From Tunavirus T1: 48,822 bases of DNA. Within the stretch, counting starts at the first letter, position 1, and each line of letters starts with the position of its first letter. The stretch lies in the sequence record MN153797.1. One strand, 5' to 3'. The notes below the pieces were generated by a model. It saw nothing but the letters and a program-made list of their open reading frames with translations, ran no database searches and was not told the origin of the DNA. This document shows positions 2,344-34,867 of the stretch, piece by piece. Both the position numbers and the translations under genes were made by a program.

Positions 2344-2832
2344 ATGAAAATTAAATTACTTAGCAATGGCGGTTACAAGGGATTCACCCGCGACCTGGAA
2401 GCTGACCCTATCGTGGTTGACGCGGTTAAGTGCGACTCAAGTACTGGAGGCTACCGCGTTAAGGTTGATGACCTTGTAAAAGCTGGCGTGTACGATCTTG
2501 ATTATGGCCTGTCGGTTAGCCCGGTATTTGGCCCAGCTGACTTCAACGAGAAAGACGGAACGATGTTCTTTTTTGATTGGGAAGTGAAGGCAAACATCAA
2601 GCCGCGCAAGGTTCGTCTTCTCAGCAATGGCGGCTACCCGATGCGACCAGGTTATGAGAATCGCACGTTCCCGGTTATCGTTGACTTCATTGGGACAACT
2701 GACAACTTGGTATACGTTAGCCATGAGCAACTTAAGGCAGTTGGATTCGTTGGCGGTATGAATAAAGAAGCGCTTTGCTTCTTCCATCGATGTCCAGAGC
2801 CGATCGGTATTGAGTGCGAGTTAGTATACTAA
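2344..2832 (+). CDS. hypothetical protein with internal duplicated motif K(I/V)(K/R)LLSNGGY
   Basis: ATG 2344 in frame with ORF 2263..2832, RBS gagga; repeat seen in translation. Confidence 0.5.
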   Translation: MKIKLLSNGGYKGFTRDLEADPIVVDAVKCDSSTGGYRVKVDDLVKAGVYDLDYGLSVSPVFGPADFNEKDGTMFFFDWEVKANIKPRKVRLLSNGGYPMRPGYENRTFPVIVDFIGTTDNLVYVSHEQLKAVGFVGGMNKEALCFFHRCPEPIGIECELVY

Positions 2833-2873
2833 GCACGAATTGTTAAAAGGGGATTTGGCCTGACTGGTATAAT
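2831..2873 (+). promoter_or_regulatory. Box-dependent promoter: aagcacgaattgtta + TGg-TATAAT (2868-2873)
   Basis: Centre to -10 = 30 bp; extended -10; hairpin ggggatt..aatcccc. Confidence 0.55.
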
Positions 2874-2903
2874 CCCCACATCAACCACTAATAGGAAAGC
2901 ATC

Positions 2904-3389
2904 ATGTTAAAATTAAAAGATATTCAGTTCCCTGTAGTATTTAACACTATTAGCTGCGGTAAAATAACCTGCCACAGCAAAGATCGCGCAACAGATTCAT
3001 CATTCAATGAGTGCCACCCGTCTATTGTTGGTAATCTTATTGAGCTTCATAACAATCACAATCCTGATAACATCCCATCTCTTCCATATTATGTTGAGGG
3101 AGTCGGGCCTGGTTGGAAGGTTGGTCGCTCCATCTTCCATGCAGCAAAGCCAGAAATCAAGCCAGCGCTACAATGCACTCAGATCGAGAACATGCCATTG
3201 AGCGCGACACTAAAAGGTGTCCAACTTGATAGCGAATCCTGGATCGAGATTACCGCCACGCCTAAAACTATTGAGGTACATGATGATGTGGTGATTCTCC
3301 TGTTGCATTACGGCAGCTTTAAGCACAAGACGGTATCAGGTGAAATCAGCATTAAGCGCGGAACTCTTGTCCGCTACGAGGTGAAATAA
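2904..3389 (+). CDS. hypothetical protein
   Basis: ORF track; RBS aggaaag. Confidence 0.5.
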   Translation: MLKLKDIQFPVVFNTISCGKITCHSKDRATDSSFNECHPSIVGNLIELHNNHNPDNIPSLPYYVEGVGPGWKVGRSIFHAAKPEIKPALQCTQIENMPLSATLKGVQLDSESWIEITATPKTIEVHDDVVILLLHYGSFKHKTVSGEISIKRGTLVRYEVK

Positions 3390-3538
3390 TGACTGCATGG
3401 GTCTTGATTATCTTGATGAGCAAAGGTCCGGATCACGTATACATGGAAAGTCAACAATCATGCAACAAGGCACGGGAAGTTATCGCAGAGAACAAGCCGT
3501 TCGGATATGAAGTAAAAACTATGTGCGTTAAACGATAG
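3389..3538 (+). CDS. small hypothetical protein (49 aa)
   Basis: ATG overlaps upstream stop (taATGa); stop TAG is first triplet of the next box; below ORF-track size cutoff. Confidence 0.3.
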   Translation: MTAWVLIILMSKGPDHVYMESQQSCNKAREVIAENKPFGYEVKTMCVKR

Positions 3539-3578
3539 CACGAATTGCTAAACCTTCCGCAAGGCCATTTGATATAGT
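3536..3578 (+). promoter_or_regulatory. Box-dependent promoter: tagcacgaattgcta + TGa-TATAGT (3573-3578)
   Basis: Centre to -10 = 30 bp; hairpin aaggcca..tggcctt. Confidence 0.55.
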
Positions 3579-3618
3579 GGCCTTATTGAAGCACGACAAC
3601 CAACTGGAGGTAAAATTT

Positions 3619-3993
3619 ATGAAATTCGAATGTATCAGCGATAACACCAAAAAATTTACTGTTGGCAAAATTTACGATGTTCCGACTGAGCACGCAGAGC
3701 AAACCGTAGCTCTGACCGACGACACGGGCCGCAACCGAATTGCAACCGTAACTCACAACGGTGAAGGTCTTCGCTGGAATAGCGGCGGCACTAAGTTCGC
3801 AACGTTCGACAAGAAGCGCAAGCGCACCTTCCGCGTCAACGGCAATGTTGCAGCTAACAAGATCCATAACGTCAAGCCGTCGGAAGTTGACCGCAAGCCA
3901 GCGCTGAAGTTTAAAGAGAAGGTGGATTTATTCAATCTTGCCGCCTCGCTTGTTCTCCTGGTCGCTGCTATTTCGCTGCTTTCCATCATGTAA
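3619..3993 (+). CDS. hypothetical protein with C-terminal transmembrane anchor
   Basis: Internal ATG of ORF 3577..3993 preceded by GGAGG; hydrophobic C-terminus LAASLVLLVAAISLLSIM. Confidence 0.5.
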   Translation: MKFECISDNTKKFTVGKIYDVPTEHAEQTVALTDDTGRNRIATVTHNGEGLRWNSGGTKFATFDKKRKRTFRVNGNVAANKIHNVKPSEVDRKPALKFKEKVDLFNLAASLVLLVAAISLLSIM

Positions 3994-4947: not shown

Positions 4948-5478
4948 ATGGATAAAATCACAATTTGGGGCCAGACAATCAACCTGTTTCTCGGCACGCG
5001 CCGAGTGGCAATCTTTGACTTTGACGGGACACTTAGCGATGGATCTGGTCGACTTCACCTGCTGCCAACAAAGGATTTGCACTTGACTGAAAGCTGGTCT
5101 GAGTTTAACCGAGCGGCAATATTTGATAACCCAATCCAGAGCACGATCGATGTGATGAACTCTATGTTTGCCGCTGGGTATCATGTGATCATTTTAACCG
5201 GGCGAAGTGATGAGGTGCGTTACGCATCTGAGTTATGGCTTAAGCATCACGGCGCTCGATATGATTACTTAGTCATGCGACCGCATACCGACAACCGCAA
5301 AGACACGGTAATGAAAGAAGAGGCAGTGCGCGCTATCGGCATTGATAACATTCTTGCGGCTTGGGATGACTCAGTGAATATAATAAAAAAATTCAGAGAT
5401 CTAGGGATAACCACATATCAGGTTTGTGAATATGCCTGTGATAGTCGAGAGGATTTAAATAGTCATGGTGTCGATTGA
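4948..5478 (+). CDS. HAD-superfamily phosphatase (possible 5'-nucleotidase / polynucleotide 3'-phosphatase)
   Basis: N-terminal motif IFDFDGTL (DxDGT signature of HAD phosphatases); RBS agaggaa. Confidence 0.6.
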   Translation: MDKITIWGQTINLFLGTRRVAIFDFDGTLSDGSGRLHLLPTKDLHLTESWSEFNRAAIFDNPIQSTIDVMNSMFAAGYHVIILTGRSDEVRYASELWLKHHGARYDYLVMRPHTDNRKDTVMKEEAVRAIGIDNILAAWDDSVNIIKKFRDLGITTYQVCEYACDSREDLNSHGVD

Positions 5479-6606: not shown

Positions 6607-6816
6607 ATGATGGTATCAACTGATAAGTTTTTCACTTGCACCAAAACTTCTGAGGTATTCGAGCTGGTTCATACTGACAACGGTGATTTCATGCATGACG
6701 GTTGCGACGCTTTCATTGAAGTGAAAGAAAGCGACTATGACGACGGAGTTTATTACAACCCTGCGGTTAACACGCAGTTTTTTACCCCGATCGAAGAGGA
6801 AGGAGAAGAGGCATGA
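6607..6816 (+). CDS. hypothetical protein
   Basis: ORF track. Confidence 0.45.
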   Translation: MMVSTDKFFTCTKTSEVFELVHTDNGDFMHDGCDAFIEVKESDYDDGVYYNPAVNTQFFTPIEEEGEEA

Positions 6817-7157
6817 TCACGATTAACCTGTCAGATAAACAAGCGCGTGAAATACTAGACACTATCGGAGAACAGCTTCACGTAAAAGGCGATACCGCTG
6901 AGATTCTTAACCAGATCGAAAGACAGCTAACCCCTGTGTCGACGAATCAAGCTGAGTTCGCAGCATGGAAAAGCGAACGCATCCTGCCAAATATCATCAA
7001 GGCATGGAAGCGCAAGCATAAAAAAGAAATCAACGTTGAGGATTTATTTACCGATGAATTAAGTCCTTCAAATGTTGCTCAATACCAGTTGCGATACATG
7101 GAGTCGGTTTGCAATCAGGTTTTAGGTGTAAGTTTTTCATTCAAAGGTGATAAATAA
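6813..7157 (+). CDS. hypothetical protein
   Basis: ORF track; start overlaps upstream stop. Confidence 0.45.
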   Translation: MITINLSDKQAREILDTIGEQLHVKGDTAEILNQIERQLTPVSTNQAEFAAWKSERILPNIIKAWKRKHKKEINVEDLFTDELSPSNVAQYQLRYMESVCNQVLGVSFSFKGDK

Positions 7158-7387
7158 TGTTCGGTTTAAGCGAAGCGGAGTGGAATGTTGTAAAGCGTGC
7201 CGCGAAAGAATTAAACAAATTCGTCAGCGGAATGAAGAAAGAAGATCGGAAAAACGACAAGATTATGATTGACGTAATTTCGACTCACCATAAAAAGGTC
7301 GAACTACTCATTGACCGCTACAAATTTGTCTGGACTGCCGGGTATATTGCAGGGCGCGTAGGTAACAAAGAGGGGGATTATGAATAA
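7157..7387 (+). CDS. hypothetical protein
   Basis: ORF track; start overlaps upstream stop. Confidence 0.45.
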   Translation: MFGLSEAEWNVVKRAAKELNKFVSGMKKEDRKNDKIMIDVISTHHKKVELLIDRYKFVWTAGYIAGRVGNKEGDYE

Positions 7388-7590
7388 TGGCCAATTTACC
7401 AAAGAAAGGCGATCAGGTTCGATGTGTCACTTCACGCAATGGTAATGCTTTATCGGCGGGGTGCTTGTACGACGTAGAAAAAGTCAGTAAGTCAAAGAGG
7501 CTTGTATTCGTGTACGGCGACGATGGAAATCTGCATGAGATTGATTACCCGCAGGATGTAACTAATGGTCAATTCGAAATTAATGATTGA
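7387..7590 (+). CDS. hypothetical protein
   Basis: ORF track; start overlaps upstream stop. Confidence 0.45.
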   Translation: MANLPKKGDQVRCVTSRNGNALSAGCLYDVEKVSKSKRLVFVYGDDGNLHEIDYPQDVTNGQFEIND

Positions 7591-7754
7591 CCTAAATCCC
7601 TGAGCGGTGATAGTATTAATCCCGTAGACAGACGAGGCGCAACTAAGCGCAACGCGTGAGACGATTCTCACACTTCCAGCTAACAAGCTCGGTTGCATAG
7701 TGGTTAAGCAACGCCGCAGACCCGTAAGCGGCAACAATTCAAGAGGATTGCATA

Positions 7755-25043: not shown

Positions 25044-28000
25044 ATGATTCAAAAAGTGATAAGCGGATCTAAAGGTGGGTCACAGAAGCCTCATAACCCA
25101 GTTGAGATGGAGGACAATCTAATCTCAATCAACAAAATCAAGATCCTGTTAGCTGTATCTGATGGTGAAATTGACGAAACATTCAGCCTGAAGCAGTTGA
25201 TGTTTAACTCAGTCCCGGTGCAAAACGAGGATGGCTCATTTAACTTCGAGGGAGTAAAGGCAGAGTTCAGACCTGGGACGCAGACTCAGGAATATATCAA
25301 GGGAATGGAAGATAGCTCTAGTGAGGTAACTGTAAATCGTGAGGTTACTACCGATAACCCATACACAATCTCAGTAACCAACAAAACGCTGTCGGCAATC
25401 CGTATCAAAATGTTCATGCCTCGCGGCGTACGAATTGAAAGTAACGGTGATAAAAATGGCGTAAGAGTTGAGTATGAGGTGCAACAAGCTGTTGATGGCG
25501 GCTCGTTTGAGACGGTGCTCACCGATGTAATCGAAGGCAAAACAATGTCAGGTTACGATCGGAGCAGACGTGTAAACCTACCTAACTTCAACAATCAGGT
25601 GATATTCAGAGTGGTTCGGAAAACTCCAGACTCTAACGACTCGAACGTTGTTGACGCGATTCAGGTAAAGAGCTATGCCGAGGTGATTGATGCCAAATTC
25701 CGTTATCCGCTGACTGGTCTTCTTTTTGTCGAGTTTGATTCGAAGATGTTCCCAAACCAGTTACCTACGATCTCAATTCGTAAGCGCTGGAAGATTGTAA
25801 ACGTTCCGTCAAACTATGATCCAGAATCACGAACTTATAACGGAAATTGGGATGGAACTTTTAAGAAGGCATGGACGAATAATCCGGCCTGGGTGCTTTA
25901 TGACCTGATGATTAATCAGCGTTATGGCTTGGATCAGAAAGAGCTTGGTATCGCTGTAGATAAATGGGCGCTCTACGAGGCTGCGCAATATTGCGATCAG
26001 ATGGTTCCTGATGGGAAGGGCGGGACGGAACCTCGATACCTTTGCGACGTGATAATCCAGTCTCAGACTGACGCTTACAAGGTTATCCGAGATATTTGCT
26101 CAATCTTTCGTGGTATGAGCTTTTGGAATGGTGAGAGCATTTCGGTAATCATCGACAGGCCGCGTGAACCTGCGTACATCTTCACTAACGACAACGTTGT
26201 TAATGGTGACTTCTCCTACACGTTCGCAAGCGAAAAGAGCATGTACACGACGTGTAATGTGATGTTTGATGATGAACAAAACATGTATCAGCAGGACGTT
26301 GAGCCAGTATTCGATCGTGAGGCTACTCTACGGTTTGGGAACAACGTTACGAGCATTACAGCGATCGGTTGCACACGTCGAAGCGAGGCCAACCGACGCG
26401 GGAGATGGATTCTGAAAACTAACCTCCGCAGCACTACGGTAAACTTCGCTACCGGGCTTGAGGGCATGATCCCGACAATCGGAGATGTTGTGGCAATAGC
26501 TGATAACTTCTGGTCAAGTAACTTGACAATGAACCTGTCAGGGCGTTTGCTCGAAGTGTCTGGAAGTCAGATTTTCTTGCCGTTCCGGGTGGATGCACGC
26601 GCTGGTGACTTTATTATCGTAAATAAGCCAGATGGCAAGCCTGTGAAGCGCACAATCTCAAGTGTTAGTGCGGATGGTAAGACTATAGAGGTTAACATTG
26701 GCTTTGGCTTTCCTGTGAAGCCTAACACGGTATTCGCTATCGACCGCACCGACATTGCGTTACAGCAGTACGTCGTGACAAAAATCGATAAGGGCGATGA
26801 TGATGAGGAATTTACCTACAAAATAACGGCGGTGGAGTACGATCCTAACAAGTATGATGAGATTGATTACGGAGTTAACATCGACGACCGACCGACGAGC
26901 ATCGTTGAACCAGATCAGATCCCTAGACCGAAAAATGTGCAAGTATCCTCAGAGTCGAGAATCGTCCAGGGGATGAGCGTAGAAACGATGATTGTTAGCT
27001 GGGATAAAGTTCCGTACGCTGTTTTCTATGACGTCCAGTGGCGAAAGGATAACGGCAACTGGCAAAATGTACCGCAGACAGCAAACAAAGAGGTATACGT
27101 TGAAGGTATTTACGCTGGCAACTATCAGGTTCGCGTTCGCTCAGTCGCTGGTTCGGGCACGACTTCAGGCTGGTCAAATATCGTCGCGGCAACGTTGACG
27201 GGTAAACAGGGTGAACCGGGCCGACCGATTAACCTCACAGCTACGGATGATGTTGTTTTTGGTATCCGTACAAAATGGGGGTTCTCTGATGGTTCTGGAG
27301 ATACAGCCTATACAGAGTTGCAACAGTCACCGGATGGAACAGTGGATAACGCAAGTTTGCTTTCTTTGATTCCGTATCCGCAGCATGAGTATTATCACTC
27401 ACCAATGCCTGGAGGGAATATTGTTTGGTATCGGGTAAGGATGGTTGACAGGATCGGTAACGTGTCTCAGTGGACTGATTTTGTCAGAGGTATGGCATCA
27501 ACAAACGTTGACGATATCATTGGGGAGATTTCTGTTGATATCGAAAACTCACCTGGTTACGAGTGGCTTGTTGATAACGCAACAGACAACGCGGCGCAGA
27601 ACTCAGCTAACGCAGAGGCAGCAATAGAAAACGCGCTCGCCAATGACAAAGACGCGATCTACATGAAGAAGGAGAACGGAAAACGAAAAGCTGAGTACAC
27701 GAAATCACTGAAACTTATTGCTGATGAGACGCAGGCACGAGTGACGGCGATCGAGCAATTGAAGGCAAGTTTTGGCGATCAGATTAGCGCTAGCAACAGC
27801 GAGCTGCGTGAGGTTATCGCAACCGAGACTGAAGCACTATCGCGTGAGATTGACCAGCTTAAGGCTCAGATTGGTGACGATATTCAGGCAAGTCTGACTG
27901 ATATTCGGGAGGTTATCGCAACCGAGACTGAAGCACTATCGCGTGAGATTGACCAGCTTAAGGCTCAGATTGGTGACGATATTCAGGCAAGTCTGACTGA

Positions 28001-28562
28001 TATTCGGGAGGCTATCGCGAACGAGACTGAGGCTAGAACGCAAGCTGACTTAACACTTAGCGCGCGGCTTGGAAATAACGAGGCGGCACTTGCTCAAAAA
28101 CTAGACTCGTGGAGTAACGCGGATTCTACTGGTGCAATGTACGGTGTCAAGTTGGGTCTGAAATACAACGGCCAGGAATACAGTGCAGGCATGGCTATGT
28201 CTCTAGTTGGTTCCGGAGCTGCGGTTAAGGCGCAGATTTTGTTTGAGGCGTCACGATTTGCCATCATGACTGGAATGAATGGTCAGACTCAGTACCCCTT
28301 CGTTGTTGAGAATGGTCAGGTTATTTTAAGTAGCGCGATTATCAAGAACGGATTCATCACCAACGCAATGATTGGAAACTTCATCCAGTCGAATAACTAT
28401 GTATTTAACCAGTCCGGATGGAGGCTTGACAAGGGTGGAACATTCGAAAATTGCGGAAGTGACGGTGAGGGTGCAATGAAGCAAACTAATACCACAATAT
28501 CTGTTAGGGATGCGAGTGGTCGCCTGAGGGTTCAGATTGGCAGGTTGACTGGCTCATGGTAA
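25044..28562 (+). CDS. central tail fiber / host specificity protein (lambda J-like)
   Basis: 1172-aa ORF after M-L-K-I block; contains in-frame 99-bp tandem repeat. Confidence 0.8.
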   Translation: MIQKVISGSKGGSQKPHNPVEMEDNLISINKIKILLAVSDGEIDETFSLKQLMFNSVPVQNEDGSFNFEGVKAEFRPGTQTQEYIKGMEDSSSEVTVNREVTTDNPYTISVTNKTLSAIRIKMFMPRGVRIESNGDKNGVRVEYEVQQAVDGGSFETVLTDVIEGKTMSGYDRSRRVNLPNFNNQVIFRVVRKTPDSNDSNVVDAIQVKSYAEVIDAKFRYPLTGLLFVEFDSKMFPNQLPTISIRKRWKIVNVPSNYDPESRTYNGNWDGTFKKAWTNNPAWVLYDLMINQRYGLDQKELGIAVDKWALYEAAQYCDQMVPDGKGGTEPRYLCDVIIQSQTDAYKVIRDICSIFRGMSFWNGESISVIIDRPREPAYIFTNDNVVNGDFSYTFASEKSMYTTCNVMFDDEQNMYQQDVEPVFDREATLRFGNNVTSITAIGCTRRSEANRRGRWILKTNLRSTTVNFATGLEGMIPTIGDVVAIADNFWSSNLTMNLSGRLLEVSGSQIFLPFRVDARAGDFIIVNKPDGKPVKRTISSVSADGKTIEVNIGFGFPVKPNTVFAIDRTDIALQQYVVTKIDKGDDDEEFTYKITAVEYDPNKYDEIDYGVNIDDRPTSIVEPDQIPRPKNVQVSSESRIVQGMSVETMIVSWDKVPYAVFYDVQWRKDNGNWQNVPQTANKEVYVEGIYAGNYQVRVRSVAGSGTTSGWSNIVAATLTGKQGEPGRPINLTATDDVVFGIRTKWGFSDGSGDTAYTELQQSPDGTVDNASLLSLIPYPQHEYYHSPMPGGNIVWYRVRMVDRIGNVSQWTDFVRGMASTNVDDIIGEISVDIENSPGYEWLVDNATDNAAQNSANAEAAIENALANDKDAIYMKKENGKRKAEYTKSLKLIADETQARVTAIEQLKASFGDQISASNSELREVIATETEALSREIDQLKAQIGDDIQASLTDIREVIATETEALSREIDQLKAQIGDDIQASLTDIREAIANETEARTQADLTLSARLGNNEAALAQKLDSWSNADSTGAMYGVKLGLKYNGQEYSAGMAMSLVGSGAAVKAQILFEASRFAIMTGMNGQTQYPFVVENGQVILSSAIIKNGFITNAMIGNFIQSNNYVFNQSGWRLDKGGTFENCGSDGEGAMKQTNTTISVRDASGRLRVQIGRLTGSW
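27811..28008 (+). repeat. Perfect 99-bp tandem duplication (2 copies plus a diverged partial third) inside the J-like gene
   Basis: Unit aggttatcgcaaccgagactgaagcactatcgcgtgagattgaccagcttaaggctcagattggtgacgatattcaggcaagtctgactgatattcggg repeats at 27811 and 27910; encodes the same 33-aa segment twice. Confidence 0.85.
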
Positions 28563-28568
28563 TATCAA

Positions 28569-28596
28569 GGGCATCGAGAGATGCCCTTTTCTTTTG
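28569..28596 (+). terminator. Rho-independent terminator
   Basis: gggcatc-gaga-gatgccc then TTTTCTTTT. Confidence 0.55.
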
Positions 28597-28607
28597 GAGG
28601 ATTTATT

Positions 28608-28913
28608 ATGGCGTACGGTATATCAACTTGGGACGCAAATGGCGTTTATAATAACTATGGAATTAAGCCTATTACGGTTGTTGGTTGGAACTTTTTGTCA
28701 GCAGGCCAGAATTCAGCATCGTTCAGCTATCAAGTGCCTCCTGGTATGCATGTGAACTACGTTATAAGCCTTGACGATGGCGCCATTAGTGGGCCTAGCA
28801 GGAAAATTATTGCTAGCGGTAATACGATAACAGTAACGCCAACAAACTCACCTGGGCCAAACGTGTACCCATCATCAAACTGTTACTTAATAGCATATCT
28901 GGAGAATGATTAA
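28608..28913 (+). CDS. tail-associated hypothetical protein (paralogous N-terminus with next ORF)
   Basis: ATG 28608 with RBS ggagga; N-terminus M(A/S)YG..(D/V)ANG shared with 28913..29602. Confidence 0.45.
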   Translation: MAYGISTWDANGVYNNYGIKPITVVGWNFLSAGQNSASFSYQVPPGMHVNYVISLDDGAISGPSRKIIASGNTITVTPTNSPGPNVYPSSNCYLIAYLEND

Positions 28914-29602
28914 TGTCATACGGTGCTTTTATAGATGTAAACGGAAACCCATTCATAACCCCGTTATCCACGCCATTCGCTTTATATGCGAGAGGGGAAA
29001 TTCAATCAGTAAATGTTAGTGGTTCACAGGTTGCGGAGAGATACGTTCGGATACCTACAGGTGTTCCGGTTATAGCTTTTTGCAAAACAACAAACACGCA
29101 GCAGGGGACCGCGCTTTCAGCCTTTACTTTCAGAAGCGGACCCAATGTTGGAACTGTTTATATAAGGGGGACAAATCCAGCAAAACAATCATACACGCTA
29201 ACATACTACATATTTGCCATATTTGAGCAGTCACTACCGAGATGGGGTATGGCAATATGGGATGCGACAGGAAAGCTAGTGCTGACAAATGAGACAAAAG
29301 TCCTTAGTGATTTGGTTACAATCGGCACTCCTGGATACGCTGGCGGTGGATTAAACATAGACACAACACTCAGCGGAAGCTACGCGGTTGTTCCAACTAT
29401 ACTTGGCAACTATCAAATTGTTATTGGAAGGTTGCCAACTGGGCAACCAATAATAGGAAACTCAACAGCAGGCAGTTCATGCAGGTACAACGGGAGCACA
29501 ACGAGAATAAATGCAGCAGCAACCACTGCGGCAGGTCAGATAATGAACACAGCGAATAATGGAAATATTATAACAGCAATCAAAACGGCAGCATACGACT
29601 AA
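28913..29602 (+). CDS. tail-associated hypothetical protein (possible fiber or receptor-binding accessory)
   Basis: ORF track; Gly/Thr/Asn-rich; paralogous N-terminus. Confidence 0.45.
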   Translation: MSYGAFIDVNGNPFITPLSTPFALYARGEIQSVNVSGSQVAERYVRIPTGVPVIAFCKTTNTQQGTALSAFTFRSGPNVGTVYIRGTNPAKQSYTLTYYIFAIFEQSLPRWGMAIWDATGKLVLTNETKVLSDLVTIGTPGYAGGGLNIDTTLSGSYAVVPTILGNYQIVIGRLPTGQPIIGNSTAGSSCRYNGSTTRINAAATTAAGQIMNTANNGNIITAIKTAAYD

Positions 29603-29625
29603 GCCCCTTGCGGGGCTTTTATTTT
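29603..29625. terminator. Bidirectional terminator between convergent genes
   Basis: gcccc-ttgc-ggggc with T-runs on both strands. Confidence 0.6.
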
Positions 29626-29851
29626 ATATCGAGCAATCGTGAGATTTGAAGTTTTTCTCTGATACATAGTTGAAGGAGAATGGGTATCCAGCACGCAATA
29701 CCATCTCCTTTCCGCGCATCTTAGATCCAAAAACGTAAACCGAGTACTCCGCGCCGCCTGATTCATAAATTGCCGTGCAAGTGCGCTCAGGCATCGATGA
29801 GCAACCAGTCAGGATGAATGCCGCAGCGATAACGGTGATTAACTTTTTCAT
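29624..29851 (-). CDS. cor: Cor-like small lipoprotein (candidate superinfection exclusion / receptor blocking)
   Basis: 75 aa; signal peptide MKKLITVIAAAFILTGC with lipobox LTGC; convergent with tail genes. Confidence 0.5.
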   Translation of the reverse strand: MKKLITVIAAAFILTGCSSMPERTCTAIYESGGAEYSVYVFGSKMRGKEMVLRAGYPFSFNYVSEKNFKSHDCSI

Positions 29852-30378
29852 TTGTATGTCCTCGTCGTTAGTGTGATTGCATTGTATGTCGCATTTACTT
29901 TTATTGCAATAGAGCGATTACAATTTTTTTCGTGTAACAGGCGTATATTTTTGTAACCGGAATGGGTGTTACAAAATCGCCTCCATCCGACCGCAGGGAG
30001 ATATGATAAAAACTCTATATAATATATATAGATAGATAATATTTAATTTTAGCTTTATATATATAATTATTGTTGTGTAACAGTTGTATATCGTGTAACA
30101 GGTGATTTGATTGATTCGTCAAATTTCTATCATGTATGTTCAAAATTTAATCAATCTGGATTCTATTTGTAGGTATCTCTGTATTTCTAATAAAAAGCGG
30201 TTACAAGTGTTACGCAATAGACAGCGCATAAAAATCTACTTAAGCCATTGATTCTGTTGATGCTGGTTGTAACTTGAGCAATATAGACACGCAATTACAC
30301 ACTGATTACATGTATTCGATTGACTAAACGCTGTTAATGGCTATAATGGATTCATCGTAAACGAAGGAGATAAACGCA
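29852..30378. promoter_or_regulatory. AT-rich divergent control region with repeated GTGTAACA-type motifs
   Basis: cgtgtaacag at about 29931, 30078, 30098; ggtgttaca at about 29955; gtgttacg at about 30210; poly-AT tracts 30010-30060. Confidence 0.45.
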
Positions 30379-32695: not shown

Positions 32696-34312
32696 CTACG
32701 TATTTTTTAAGCTTTCAACAAACTCTCCAGATACCATTCTTTCATGATTTCTTTTGCACTCTTCAACCTTCTTGTTGTAAATCGAGTCATTAGGCATCTC
32801 AACTCGAACGCTAACAAAAACATCACTCGGAATGTCAATAGGATCTCCGTCGCTATACCCATCCTTATGATTTCTTGCGAATGAAGGCGCGTTATCATGA
32901 GTTCTATGATAAGTCTTGATAACCAAAGACCCATCAGGGTTAACATCATAATCTACCCACAATATAGGCTGTCCGTTAATGTCTTTTGGTATCTCTATGC
33001 CACCATTAACACCACCCCACGCTAGATCAGAATTTAGTGATAAACACCCCCTTATCAAATACTCGCCAGTAGAAATCCTCTCAACTGTACAACCTTCGCT
33101 CTCGTCGTTTGTTCTATGGCTCCCGTTGCCAAAAATATCAACGATGGGCGAGGCTCTTTTTATAAATCCGTTAGAGTCAACGGTTGTATTGCCTGTATTC
33201 CATATAACCTGGGTAGATTGCCATTGCCCCGCTCCTGTCTGTTTTCTGAGCCTCACATCCTTATAGTGTGGAGAGGTCATTGATGCGTCTTCAATAACAA
33301 AACCGAAAGCACTACCATCTCCTTGACCGTTTCTATGACGAACAGATATAGCTGTGACCCATCCAACAGAATTAACATTGTAACTTGCAAGGCTGCTAGG
33401 CTGAGATGATAAGGCGTTAACATAATCTACCCAGCTTGATTTCTCGTTAGATGCCGGACTTGATACAACGTTACCGGAAGAACTTGCCTGAAACGGTATC
33501 CACGGAGAAAACTTTGCATTATTGCCGTTTTTCATCCTTATGTAAAAAGTGCCGCGACCCGCTCTTGCGTATTCGTTTTGAGAATTTCCAGATTCTGGGT
33601 CAGTACCCAAATAAGTAAAAGGCGTAAATCTCTGAATGCAAGCGCTTGCACCGTTAGCTCCATTAGGAAGAACCTCAAGCATACCTGCCGTAGCCTCAGG
33701 ATAGCCCCTACTAGCGGTAGCTAAAGCACTTGATGATTGCATATATATTCCAGGGCCATCACCTTCACCAGTTATTGAATCAAGATGTTTTTCCCCTAAG
33801 TTAGTTCTATCAAGTTTGTAAACCTTTAGGCTTGTCCTTGCCTGCTCCTCGGTAGTTCCACCAGTGCCACCAAAATTAACCCCTAGAGCCTTGTTTTCAC
33901 TTCCATCATGAGTCATGGCGCCCCAGTCGCCGCTATCCTTGACGATCAGCTTAAATCCGGTCCTATCGTCATTTGAATAGATTTCCGTTAAATCTCCGCG
34001 AGGTTGATTTAATCTATTTACTGCTAGATTTTTCTTTGATTGCTCCTTGTCAGCAAGGCCAGAAAGATTTCCGTCCTTAGTTAAAAGATTGTCAGCATTA
34101 ACGCTATTTGCTGCGTCCTGAGCTTCCTGAGCACTTACCGCTGCCGCGTCTTTAGCGCTAACCGCCGCATCGCGTGCTGCCTGGGCATCGTTTTTTGCTG
34201 AGGTTGCAGTTTGCGCCGCAGTCTGAGCATCATTAACATAGCCAGATAGATCGCCTTTAGCGTCATTAATTTCTTGAACGATATTGTTCAGTGTCCATAT
34301 CAAGATCGGCAA
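32696..34312 (-). CDS. tail fiber protein, C-terminal fragment (no ATG, no RBS; TTG is the first in-frame start)
   Basis: 538-aa ORF; N-terminus repeats the C-terminus of 34412..34867; Ala/Gln-rich coiled region then Gly/Ser/Asn-rich distal domain. Confidence 0.6.
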   Translation of the reverse strand: MPILIWTLNNIVQEINDAKGDLSGYVNDAQTAAQTATSAKNDAQAARDAAVSAKDAAAVSAQEAQDAANSVNADNLLTKDGNLSGLADKEQSKKNLAVNRLNQPRGDLTEIYSNDDRTGFKLIVKDSGDWGAMTHDGSENKALGVNFGGTGGTTEEQARTSLKVYKLDRTNLGEKHLDSITGEGDGPGIYMQSSSALATASRGYPEATAGMLEVLPNGANGASACIQRFTPFTYLGTDPESGNSQNEYARAGRGTFYIRMKNGNNAKFSPWIPFQASSSGNVVSSPASNEKSSWVDYVNALSSQPSSLASYNVNSVGWVTAISVRHRNGQGDGSAFGFVIEDASMTSPHYKDVRLRKQTGAGQWQSTQVIWNTGNTTVDSNGFIKRASPIVDIFGNGSHRTNDESEGCTVERISTGEYLIRGCLSLNSDLAWGGVNGGIEIPKDINGQPILWVDYDVNPDGSLVIKTYHRTHDNAPSFARNHKDGYSDGDPIDIPSDVFVSVRVEMPNDSIYNKKVEECKRNHERMVSGEFVESLKNT

Positions 34313-34330
34313 TAATATCCATGCCGATGC
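34197..34330. repeat. Direct repeat copy A (134 bp) of tail fiber coding sequence
   Basis: Matches 34418-34555 except three small indels (agt/tgag, gtg/gttg, cca/ccaa). Confidence 0.8.
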
Positions 34331-34355
34331 AGATTAGTGATAGCCTTGTCGGTTG

Positions 34356-34402
34356 CTGAATAAATAAAAAAAATAGGGGCCCCCCCCCCCTTTTTTATTC
34401 AG
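34356..34402. other. Palindromic element ctgaataaa-taaaaaaaa-tagggg-C11-ttt-tttattcag between the two repeat copies
   Basis: Inverted arms 34356-34364 and 34394-34402; homopolymers A8, G4, C11, T6 read directly. Confidence 0.8.
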
Positions 34403-34411
34403 ATAGACACG

Positions 34412-34867
34412 TCACGTGCTGAGGTTGCTGAGTTGCGCCGCAGTCTGAGCATCATTAACATAGCCAGATAGATCGCCTTTAGCGTCATTAATTTCTTGAA
34501 CGATATTGTTCAGGTTGTCCATATCAAGATCGGCAATAATATCCAATGCCGATGCGATCTCAGTCTCTTTGCTCTGGTAGTACCGAAGCGTCTCAGCGAC
34601 GTTTTGCGCAAGACCGTTAACGGTCAATGAATCGTTAAGCAAGATCACATACTTACCGTCAGCGGCAGTCTGACCATCCGTAGAGATAGCCTTTAGCTCT
34701 GTGTCGCTCACAATGTCGCTGATTACCGCCAGTTTAATTGGTTGCTCCAGGAATACGATAGTTGCACCGACTCGAATCAGAGCAAGCTGATCTTTCCATT
34801 TTGTATCGGTTCCGTGAACCGTACCGTCTGCATCCATTGATGCAGTACCGCGTCTATATAAAGCCAT
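34412..34867 (-). CDS. tail fiber protein, N-terminal fragment (151 aa) ending just after repeat copy B
   Basis: ATG 34867 with RBS aaggag; C-terminal ..LNNIVQEINDAKGDLSGYVNDAQTAAQ duplicated at start of 32696..34312. Confidence 0.55.
   Translation of the reverse strand: MALYRRGTASMDADGTVHGTDTKWKDQLALIRVGATIVFLEQPIKLAVISDIVSDTELKAISTDGQTAADGKYVILLNDSLTVNGLAQNVAETLRYYQSKETEIASALDIIADLDMDNLNNIVQEINDAKGDLSGYVNDAQTAAQLSNLST
34418..34555. repeat. Direct repeat copy B (138 bp) of tail fiber coding sequence
   Basis: See copy A. Confidence 0.8.

Follow-up and report, generated by a model that had tools for sequence, protein, structure and literature searches.

Two small genes of Tunavirus T1, gp32 and gp31, which follow the gene for the J-like central fibre protein gp33, probably encode proteins for recognition of the receptor FhuA, with gp31 as the FhuA binder docked on the J tip and gp32 as its small partner subunit or adaptor. 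We regard the assignment of gp31 as a receptor-binding protein (RBP) as quite likely, and that of gp32 as a virion subunit rather than a chaperone as close to an even call. T1 is the classical FhuA (TonA) phage; it and related phages are well known as contaminants in laboratories and are also candidates for phage therapy. To our knowledge, the molecule with which T1 recognises FhuA has never been directly shown. The analysis was carried out on sequence record MN153797.1 (48,822 nucleotides, the whole of which is referred to as the window), and the evidence computed here comprises gene identity, synteny, a predicted fold match, the absence of signals for export, and the co-variation seen at the J tip. 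The features central to the argument are the following:

28608-28913, plus strand: gp32 (T1 Orf32; phrog_557), 101 aa, N-terminus MAYGISTWDANG
28913-29602, plus strand: gp31 (T1 Orf31; phrog_425), 229 aa, N-terminus MSYGAFIDVNG
25044-28562, plus strand: J-like central fibre gene gp33, 1172 aa, with Pfam domains FNIII-A_GpJ, Phage-tail_3 and Phage_Tail_Tip
28425-28559, plus strand: last 45 codons of gp33, proposed docking site for the cassette proteins, including the hairpin TISVRDASGRLRVQIG

Identity of the gene pair

Positions 28400-29900 of the window were 99.5 % identical to three GenBank records of Escherichia phage T1, with coordinates shifted by one base, and by sequence the two open reading frames (ORFs) are T1 Orf32 and Orf31. 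PHROG searches matched gp32 to phrog_557 (E = 2.9e-31) and gp31 to phrog_425 (E = 2.3e-66). An initial annotation, made from the nucleotide sequence without database searches, had described two proteins located after the J-like gene and before a Cor-like gene. Both ORFs are present there on the same strand, and the Cor-like gene lies beyond them on the minus strand. The description of both as rich in Gly, Thr and Asn was about right (gp32: S 11.9, N 10.9 and G 9.9 %; gp31: T 12.7, G 10.9, A 10.0 and N 7.0 %). The pair lies on the strand of the late tail genes, with stop/start overlaps: gp32 starts 46 nt past the J stop codon, and the gp32 stop and gp31 start overlap in TAATG. A "GHMP kinase" note in AY216660 reflects only a chance-level match (1fi4, E = 0.05).

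Distribution and gene order in other phages

A tblastn search detected gp31 homologs in 349 phage records, including those of T1-like phages, N15 (gp23), phi80 (gp23), HK022, several mEp and HK lambdoids, Salmonella phage ES18 (gp31), JLBYU37/41/60 and Dhillonvirus, and also Klebsiella Webervirus, Aeromonas and Serratia phages. T1, phi80, N15, HK022, ES18 and the JLBYU phages are given as FhuA-dependent in the literature (PMC13164509, citing Wietzorrek 2006; PMC10373560). The mEp phages, which likewise carry the gp31 homolog after J, also count among the phages known to depend on FhuA. Both T1 proteins were 53-56 % identical to gp22/gp23 of N15 and phi80, and 34-37 % identical to their homologs in ES18 and Klebsiella phage Sweeny.

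The T1 pair represents the FhuA-type locus of Drexlerviridae, Dhillonvirus and lambdoid/N15-like phages, of which T1 is the archetype, and which includes N15 gp22/gp23, phi80 gp22/gp23 and ES18 gp30/gp31. In N15, phi80 and ES18, the order is J, a protein of ~100 aa, a protein of ~225 aa and Cor, connected by stop/start overlaps, whereas T1 has an inverted cor, and a terminator in place of the overlap between J and gp32. The order of J, ~100-aa and ~225-aa proteins is also kept in metagenomic contigs at 32-34 % identity, where it is accompanied by a 75-aa Cor. Cor homologs stand next after the gp31 homologs in N15, phi80, ES18 and two further loci (L008 and L009), and cor is the cognate partner gene of the gp32-gp31 cassette. 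The pair also occurs after J without cor, in Sweeny (2651-3624, locus L007) and in Serratia phage ZDD2 (3927-4917, locus L011). In ZDD2, the pair is followed by a 564-aa protein.

The gp32 homologs were always standalone proteins of ~100 aa beside J. A profile search of 1.84 billion representatives revealed no gp32-gp31 fusion, and the matches were essentially standalone ~100-aa proteins. Long matches in several stretches, which were also returned by the gp32 profile, look like low-complexity noise.

Predicted structures of gp31 and gp32

Searches of Pfam, NCBIfam, PADLOC and PDB sequences with gp32 or gp31 as single queries gave no family match. Structure prediction, which the initial annotation had suggested as a check, yielded confident all-beta models. 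The AlphaFold2 model of gp31, built from family alignments, is all-beta (pLDDT 90.4, pTM 0.86) and has two beta domains, one spanning residues 23-102 and the other 150-224, with a linker that contains a hairpin between them and a conserved central hairpin at residues 100-135. The model of gp32 (pLDDT 85.4) consists of one beta-sandwich (residues 23-100) after an N-terminal hairpin (residues 1-22).

The predicted fold of gp31 is that of RBP_Oeko (PDB 9RPT chain C), a protein that binds LptD, and the match is independent of the 9RPT entry because the model was built without templates. 9RPT is a cryo-EM structure of Shigella LptDE with the RBP of phage Oekolampad (Bas18). The gene for RBP_Oeko directly follows that for the J homolog. 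In vitro, the protein binds its receptor by itself, and the part nearest the tail is disordered (10.1101/2025.07.07.663478). gp32 gave no strong structural match. A Foldseek search against BFVD returned 17 uncharacterised phage proteins with TM scores of 0.5-0.65 and no functional labels, and the fold is accordingly widespread. In PMC13164509 (2026), neither protein had Foldseek or HHpred matches, and a 2026 preprint calls the receptor-specific RBP families unrelated (bioRxiv 10.64898/2026.04.02.716166). For these reasons the predicted fold link between gp31 and the LptD-specific RBPs may be a small new point.

Rtp44, the LptD-type RBP of the T1 relative Rtp, allows a closer comparison. The predicted fold is the same, and the N-termini (gp31 MSYGAFIDVNGNPFITP and Rtp44 MAQGIYIDLNDGRKPMTIT) and mid-protein hairpins (gp31 WGMAIWDATGKLVLTNETKVL and Rtp44 PGINIFNSNNQCTFSTLTRPL) are alike. 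The two systems differ in receptor (LptD for Rtp44, FhuA for T1), in the orientation of the cassette, which in Rtp lies on the strand opposite J, and in chain number, since Rtp44 is one chain of 311 aa, while T1 has two chains of 101 and 229 aa. The LptD cassette of Rtp consists of rtp44 (6753-7688, locus L005) and rtp45 only (an RBP and a lipoprotein), with no gp32-like gene. Kuravirus podoviruses (SU10, MLP3, MN03 and LAMP) also carry homologs of DUF6453, the family of these RBPs, with identities of 22-25 %, which suggests an RBP module common to siphoviruses and podoviruses.

The most conserved segments of the pair are the N-terminal hairpins of both proteins and gp31 residues 100-135. The first 25 residues of gp32 are 64-76 % identical across N15, phi80, ES18 and Sweeny, and the remainder is 27-50 % identical. 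The same N-terminal segments are modelled with low confidence (pLDDT 54-59 for gp32 residues 1-20; low confidence also for the first ~20 residues of gp31). Because they are conserved, yet of low confidence in models of the monomers, the N-terminal hairpins behave as would be expected for interface elements.

Both proteins lack a signal peptide, a lipobox, transmembrane segments and a beta-barrel, as judged from hydropathy and inspection of the N-termini. The maximum Kyte-Doolittle hydropathy over 19 residues was 0.52 for gp32 and 1.12 for gp31, and both N-termini (MAYGISTWDANG and MSYGAFIDVNG) are polar and acidic, so that a transmembrane helix and a signal peptide are both absent.

Co-variation of the J tip with the cassette

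A Pfam Phage_Tail_Tip domain spans residues 1016-1151 of J. The last 45 residues of T1 J are 71 % identical to those of N15, 75 % to phi80, 51 % to ES18 and 66 % to Sweeny, with 20-53 % identity over the preceding 105-300 residues. In Rtp, the pattern is reversed, with 37 % identity to T1 over the last 45 residues and 58-62 % upstream. Rtp is a closer relative of T1, yet carries a cassette of the LptD type. On these identities, the last 45 residues of J track cassette type and not phylogeny, in agreement with Fig. S12 of the 2026 preprint (bioRxiv 10.64898/2026.04.02.716166). This fits docking of the cassette proteins at the tip, which the k-mer features reported in the same preprint also suggest.

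Variation within T1 was examined by comparison with AY216660. In 10.9 kb, 20 substitutions were found, 7 of them inside 28400-29900 (binomial p = 0.014). All five substitutions in the pair are non-synonymous (gp32 G64S; gp31 N91K, S119T, V169I and T214A), and a further one lies in the J tip (Y1137C). Most of those in gp32 and gp31 are located in or beside variable segments of the family alignments. The variable loops of gp31 comprise residues 30-47, 65-91, 170-173 and 202-210. The numbers are small, and the pattern is what might be expected of receptor-contact surfaces; diversifying selection acting on the recognition module is a possible cause.

A hairpin motif shared by gp32, gp31 and J

The initial annotation had called the two proteins paralogous, which was not established by our comparisons. 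BLASTP of gp32 against gp31 gave E = 2.6 over 4 residues, and hhalign of the two family profiles aligned only a hairpin of 13 columns (gp32 2-14 to gp31 110-122; P = 3.8e-4, probability 36 %). An alignment of gp32 with gp31 residues 1-105 was colinear and weak (P = 0.0027, probability 11 %). There is no internal duplication in gp31, as judged by comparison of its N-terminal and C-terminal halves (P = 0.45).

The proposed common start, M(A/S)YG..(D/V)(A/V)NG, captures the likeness of the two N-termini, with an error in register, as four residues separate YG from DANG in gp32 and three separate YG from the corresponding motif in gp31. A WDA(T/N)G segment was said to be repeated within the second protein. 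gp31 has WDATG at residues 116-120 (within WGMAIWDATG, residues 111-120), but WDANG belongs to gp32, and the gp31 N-terminus reads IDVNG. The WDATG of gp31 therefore repeats the N-terminal motif of gp32, and not one of its own. The pattern [YW]G.{2,4}D[AV][NT]G, which was set post hoc with the sequences already seen, had 3 matches when the window was translated in six frames (97,640 residues), each of them within gp32 or gp31, and 0 of 20,000 shuffles yielded 3 matches. The motif is not an artefact of composition.

The J C-terminal hairpin TISVRDASGRLRVQIG and three hairpins of the pair share the type h-x-h-x-D-x-x-G-x-h; gp32 has one of the three, at its N-terminus, and gp31 has two, at its N-terminus and at residues 111-125. 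In the six-frame translation, the generic hairpin pattern matched only the J, gp32 and gp31 sites and one HAD-phosphatase motif. The latter (FDFDGT) belongs to an unrelated 176-aa HAD-type phosphatase-like ORF (4948-5478, plus strand). All three hairpins of the pair are retained in remote Serratia homologs.

Together, gp32 and gp31 comprise 330 aa with three conserved hairpins, and a DUF6453 RBP comprises 311 aa with three conserved G-led segments. A tentative idea is that the pair is a two-chain version of a single-chain DUF6453-type RBP, and that each of the pair's three hairpins would dock on one of the three J tips. By analogy with PAAR on VgrG, it could then serve as a pseudo-threefold adaptor that mounts an asymmetric binder on a trimeric fibre, a suggestion we offer with equal reserve.

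Proposed mode of FhuA recognition

We propose that gp32, gp31, the last ~45 residues of J (gp33) and Cor together form an FhuA-specific host-recognition module. The soluble, two-domain, all-beta gp31 would assemble non-covalently on the J fibre, a trimer, at its distal tip, and would bind the outer-membrane transporter FhuA on its extracellular face. Binding would be the irreversible, terminal step of adsorption that triggers DNA ejection. gp32, which is translationally coupled to gp31 and shares its N-terminal beta-hairpin, would most likely be a small partner or adaptor and join gp31 in assembly at the J tip; Cor would work separately, excluding superinfection by acting on FhuA from its periplasmic side. 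The virion location of the pair, the direct contact with FhuA and the role of gp32 are what we infer from the computed evidence.

The same logic and the same receptor are found in phage T5, where a separate RBP, pb5, located non-covalently at the tip of the trimeric central fibre (pb4), binds FhuA, and the small lipoprotein Llp, with about 20 % identity to Cor, acts from the periplasm to block FhuA (PMC9586334). The J protein of lambda is a hub/fibre protein homologous to T1 gp33, and the T1 pair occupies the same position after J, but lambda J binds LamB directly, with no separate RBP.

Several published results agree with this assignment. Receptor screening by RB-TnSeq validated FhuA for T1 (bioRxiv 10.64898/2026.04.02.716166, supplementary table). 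The same preprint names the second gene after J the FhuA RBP and calls the other proteins "accessory" (in CPL00221, CDS_0024 encodes J and CDS_0026 the FhuA RBP), backs the FhuA RBP with AlphaFold3 models for the homolog Sew11, and confirms the cassette correlation in 64 T1-like phages. Earlier, Maffei et al. 2021 had described a "bona fide RBP locus" downstream of gpJ (PMC8594841). The pair and its probable host-recognition role are thus already in the literature, and the suggestion of the initial annotation that these genes are candidate host-range determinants is supported, the same cassette having been proposed as an RBP locus (PMC8594841; bioRxiv 10.64898/2026.04.02.716166). New here are the lack of export signals, the co-variation of J tip and cassette, the conservation of gene order, whether or not cor is present, at identities as low as about 32 %, and the separate lateral fibre gp26.

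Some results weigh against the proposal. DUF6453 (PF20051) is a proven RBP family; gp31 had no Pfam match to it at E <= 1, hhalign of gp31 with the DUF6453 profile was not significant (P = 0.0043, probability 8 %), and hmmsearch --max together with hhalign revealed only motif-level, non-significant similarity. A PDB profile search with gp31 returned nothing at E <= 10. Our literature search gave no experiment in which gp31 or gp32 was found in virions or bound to FhuA, and no genetic evidence. The cryo-EM study of T1 left J residues 821-1172 unresolved and does not mention gp31 or gp32 (PMC11945409). Virion proteomics of SH6, a T1-like phage with an LptD-type cassette, found no cassette protein, although several minor tail proteins were missed too (PMC5238451). 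Finally, two papers interpret the locus otherwise: PMC13164509 (2026) takes the pair as membrane proteins related to superinfection exclusion (Sie), and Lewis et al. 2023 treat J itself as the RBP (PMC10373560).

If gp31 is, with gp32, the receptor binder mounted on the tip, and shares fold and docking hairpins with the LptD RBP, the cassettes after J would be interchangeable members of one structural family, and both receptor prediction from genomes and retargeting by swaps of cassette and J tip would become more rational. If the two-chain idea also holds, the receptor-specific cassettes of small siphoviruses would be united in a single structural superfamily that shares one mechanism of docking.

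Alternative explanations

The first alternative retains gp31 as the RBP of the virion and makes gp32 an assembly chaperone, a helper of the Tfa/gp38 type that is absent from the mature particle. The small size of gp32, and its position adjoining and translationally coupled to gp31, would suit such a helper, as would its lack of a strong structural match. RBP_Oeko moreover binds its receptor by itself in vitro, and LptD-type cassettes function without a gp32-like gene. On the other hand, the most conserved part of gp32 is a hairpin like those of gp31 and the J C-terminus, and looks more like a docking element, the gp32 gene precedes its presumed client, and searches of Pfam, PHROG and NCBIfam gave no similarity to known fibre chaperones. 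We consider this role unlikely, though worth keeping in view.

In a second alternative, the C-terminal domain of gp33 itself binds FhuA, as lambda J binds LamB, and gp32 and gp31 only modulate or stabilise the tip. Precedent exists in relatives specific for TolC, LamB and NupG, which use C-terminal extensions of J (PMC8594841; bioRxiv 10.64898/2026.04.02.716166), and J was the protein analysed as the RBP by Lewis et al. 2023 (PMC10373560). The co-variation of J tip and cassette would fit direct receptor contact too. Phages whose J binds the receptor directly, however, lack the cassette (PMC8594841), and the predicted fold of gp31 is that of a protein proven to bind its receptor alone. The conserved J tip is also only about 45 residues long, and is conserved, not variable, among FhuA-type phages of different host genera. 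Direct binding by J is improbable in our judgement.

A third proposal follows from database names and the KanT1 paper, in which the pair are membrane or outer-membrane proteins that aid Cor in superinfection exclusion. RefSeq NC_005833 and PHROGs 557/425 carry the names "outer membrane protein" as well as "membrane associated protein", which the present analysis corrects, and these misleading names led one paper to its superinfection-exclusion interpretation (PMC13164509). Genetic linkage of the pair to cor in FhuA-dependent phages speaks for this proposal (PMC13164509). Against it stand the lack of a signal peptide, lipobox or transmembrane segment and of any PADLOC match, and the orientation of the genes, since the pair is co-oriented and translationally coupled with J, whereas cor is on the opposite strand in T1 and ES18. 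The presence of the pair without cor in Sweeny and ZDD2 argues against a role as Cor helper, and the predicted gp31 fold matches a virion RBP. Taken together, the match to the LptD RBP fold, the lack of export signals and the J-tip co-variation strengthen the case for an RBP over the membrane/Sie annotation, which we regard as very improbable.

Finally, the gene order of lambda, with stf and tfa after J, recalls that of T1, and raises the possibility that the pair are components of the lateral (side) tail fibre. This can be put aside with near certainty, because the lateral fibre of T1 is a separate protein, gp26, encoded on the minus strand about 3 kb away (record notes on Rtp50 and Sweeny gp49); N15 gp25, phi80 gp25 and ES18 gp33 are likewise separate side-fibre genes downstream of cor, and the T1 models are compact beta-sandwiches, not fibrous, with no Stf, Tfa or collar domains in Pfam or NCBIfam searches and no relation to the fibrous Stf/Tfa proteins of lambda. 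The initial annotation had spoken of "side fiber or receptor-binding accessory proteins"; its second half agrees with our results and its first does not. At the tip of the central fibre, gp31 would more likely be the main receptor binder than an accessory.

Neighbouring features and other observations

The remaining features of the locus are as follows:

28567-28598 (hairpin 28567-28588), plus strand: rho-independent terminator-like hairpin and T-tract in the gap between J and gp32 (terminator scan; annotated in AY216660 and NC_005833)
28596-28600, plus strand: gp32 ribosome-binding site GGAGG (sequence inspection; annotated in AY216660)
29601-29618, no strand: terminator-like hairpin between the convergent gp31 and cor (terminator scan; annotated in AY216660 and NC_005833)
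29624-29851, minus strand: cor, superinfection-exclusion lipoprotein blocking FhuA (phrog_1119, E = 5.2e-30; lipobox signal)

The ATG at 28608, and not the upstream ATG at 28581, is the right start of gp32, because GGAGG is located at 28596-28600 and the homologs begin with MAYG. The terminator between J and gp32 would be expected to reduce expression of gp32 and gp31 relative to J.

Within gp33, positions 27810-28030 (plus strand) contain a tandem duplication of 99 bp (33 aa; 2.2 copies, 97 % identity) in a coiled-coil segment (EALSREIDQLKAQIGDDIQASLTDIRE). Pfam matches to "Zw10_N" and "Apolipoprotein" in the J coiled coil are noise.

Genes of the coliphage-type J cassette were also found, at identities of 32-55 % or more, in MG065679 (Campylobacter phage A13a), ON843697 (Pseudomonas phage Motto) and OQ221563 (Acinetobacter phage NJ01). 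The non-enterobacterial host labels of these records may be wrong, or the records may represent coliphage contaminants.

In the gp26 lateral tail fibre gene (minus strand), positions 34268-34487 carry dense substitutions and indels relative to AY216660. Identity in the flanks is about 99.8 %, which makes the window a T1 variant whose side fibre differs in one segment.

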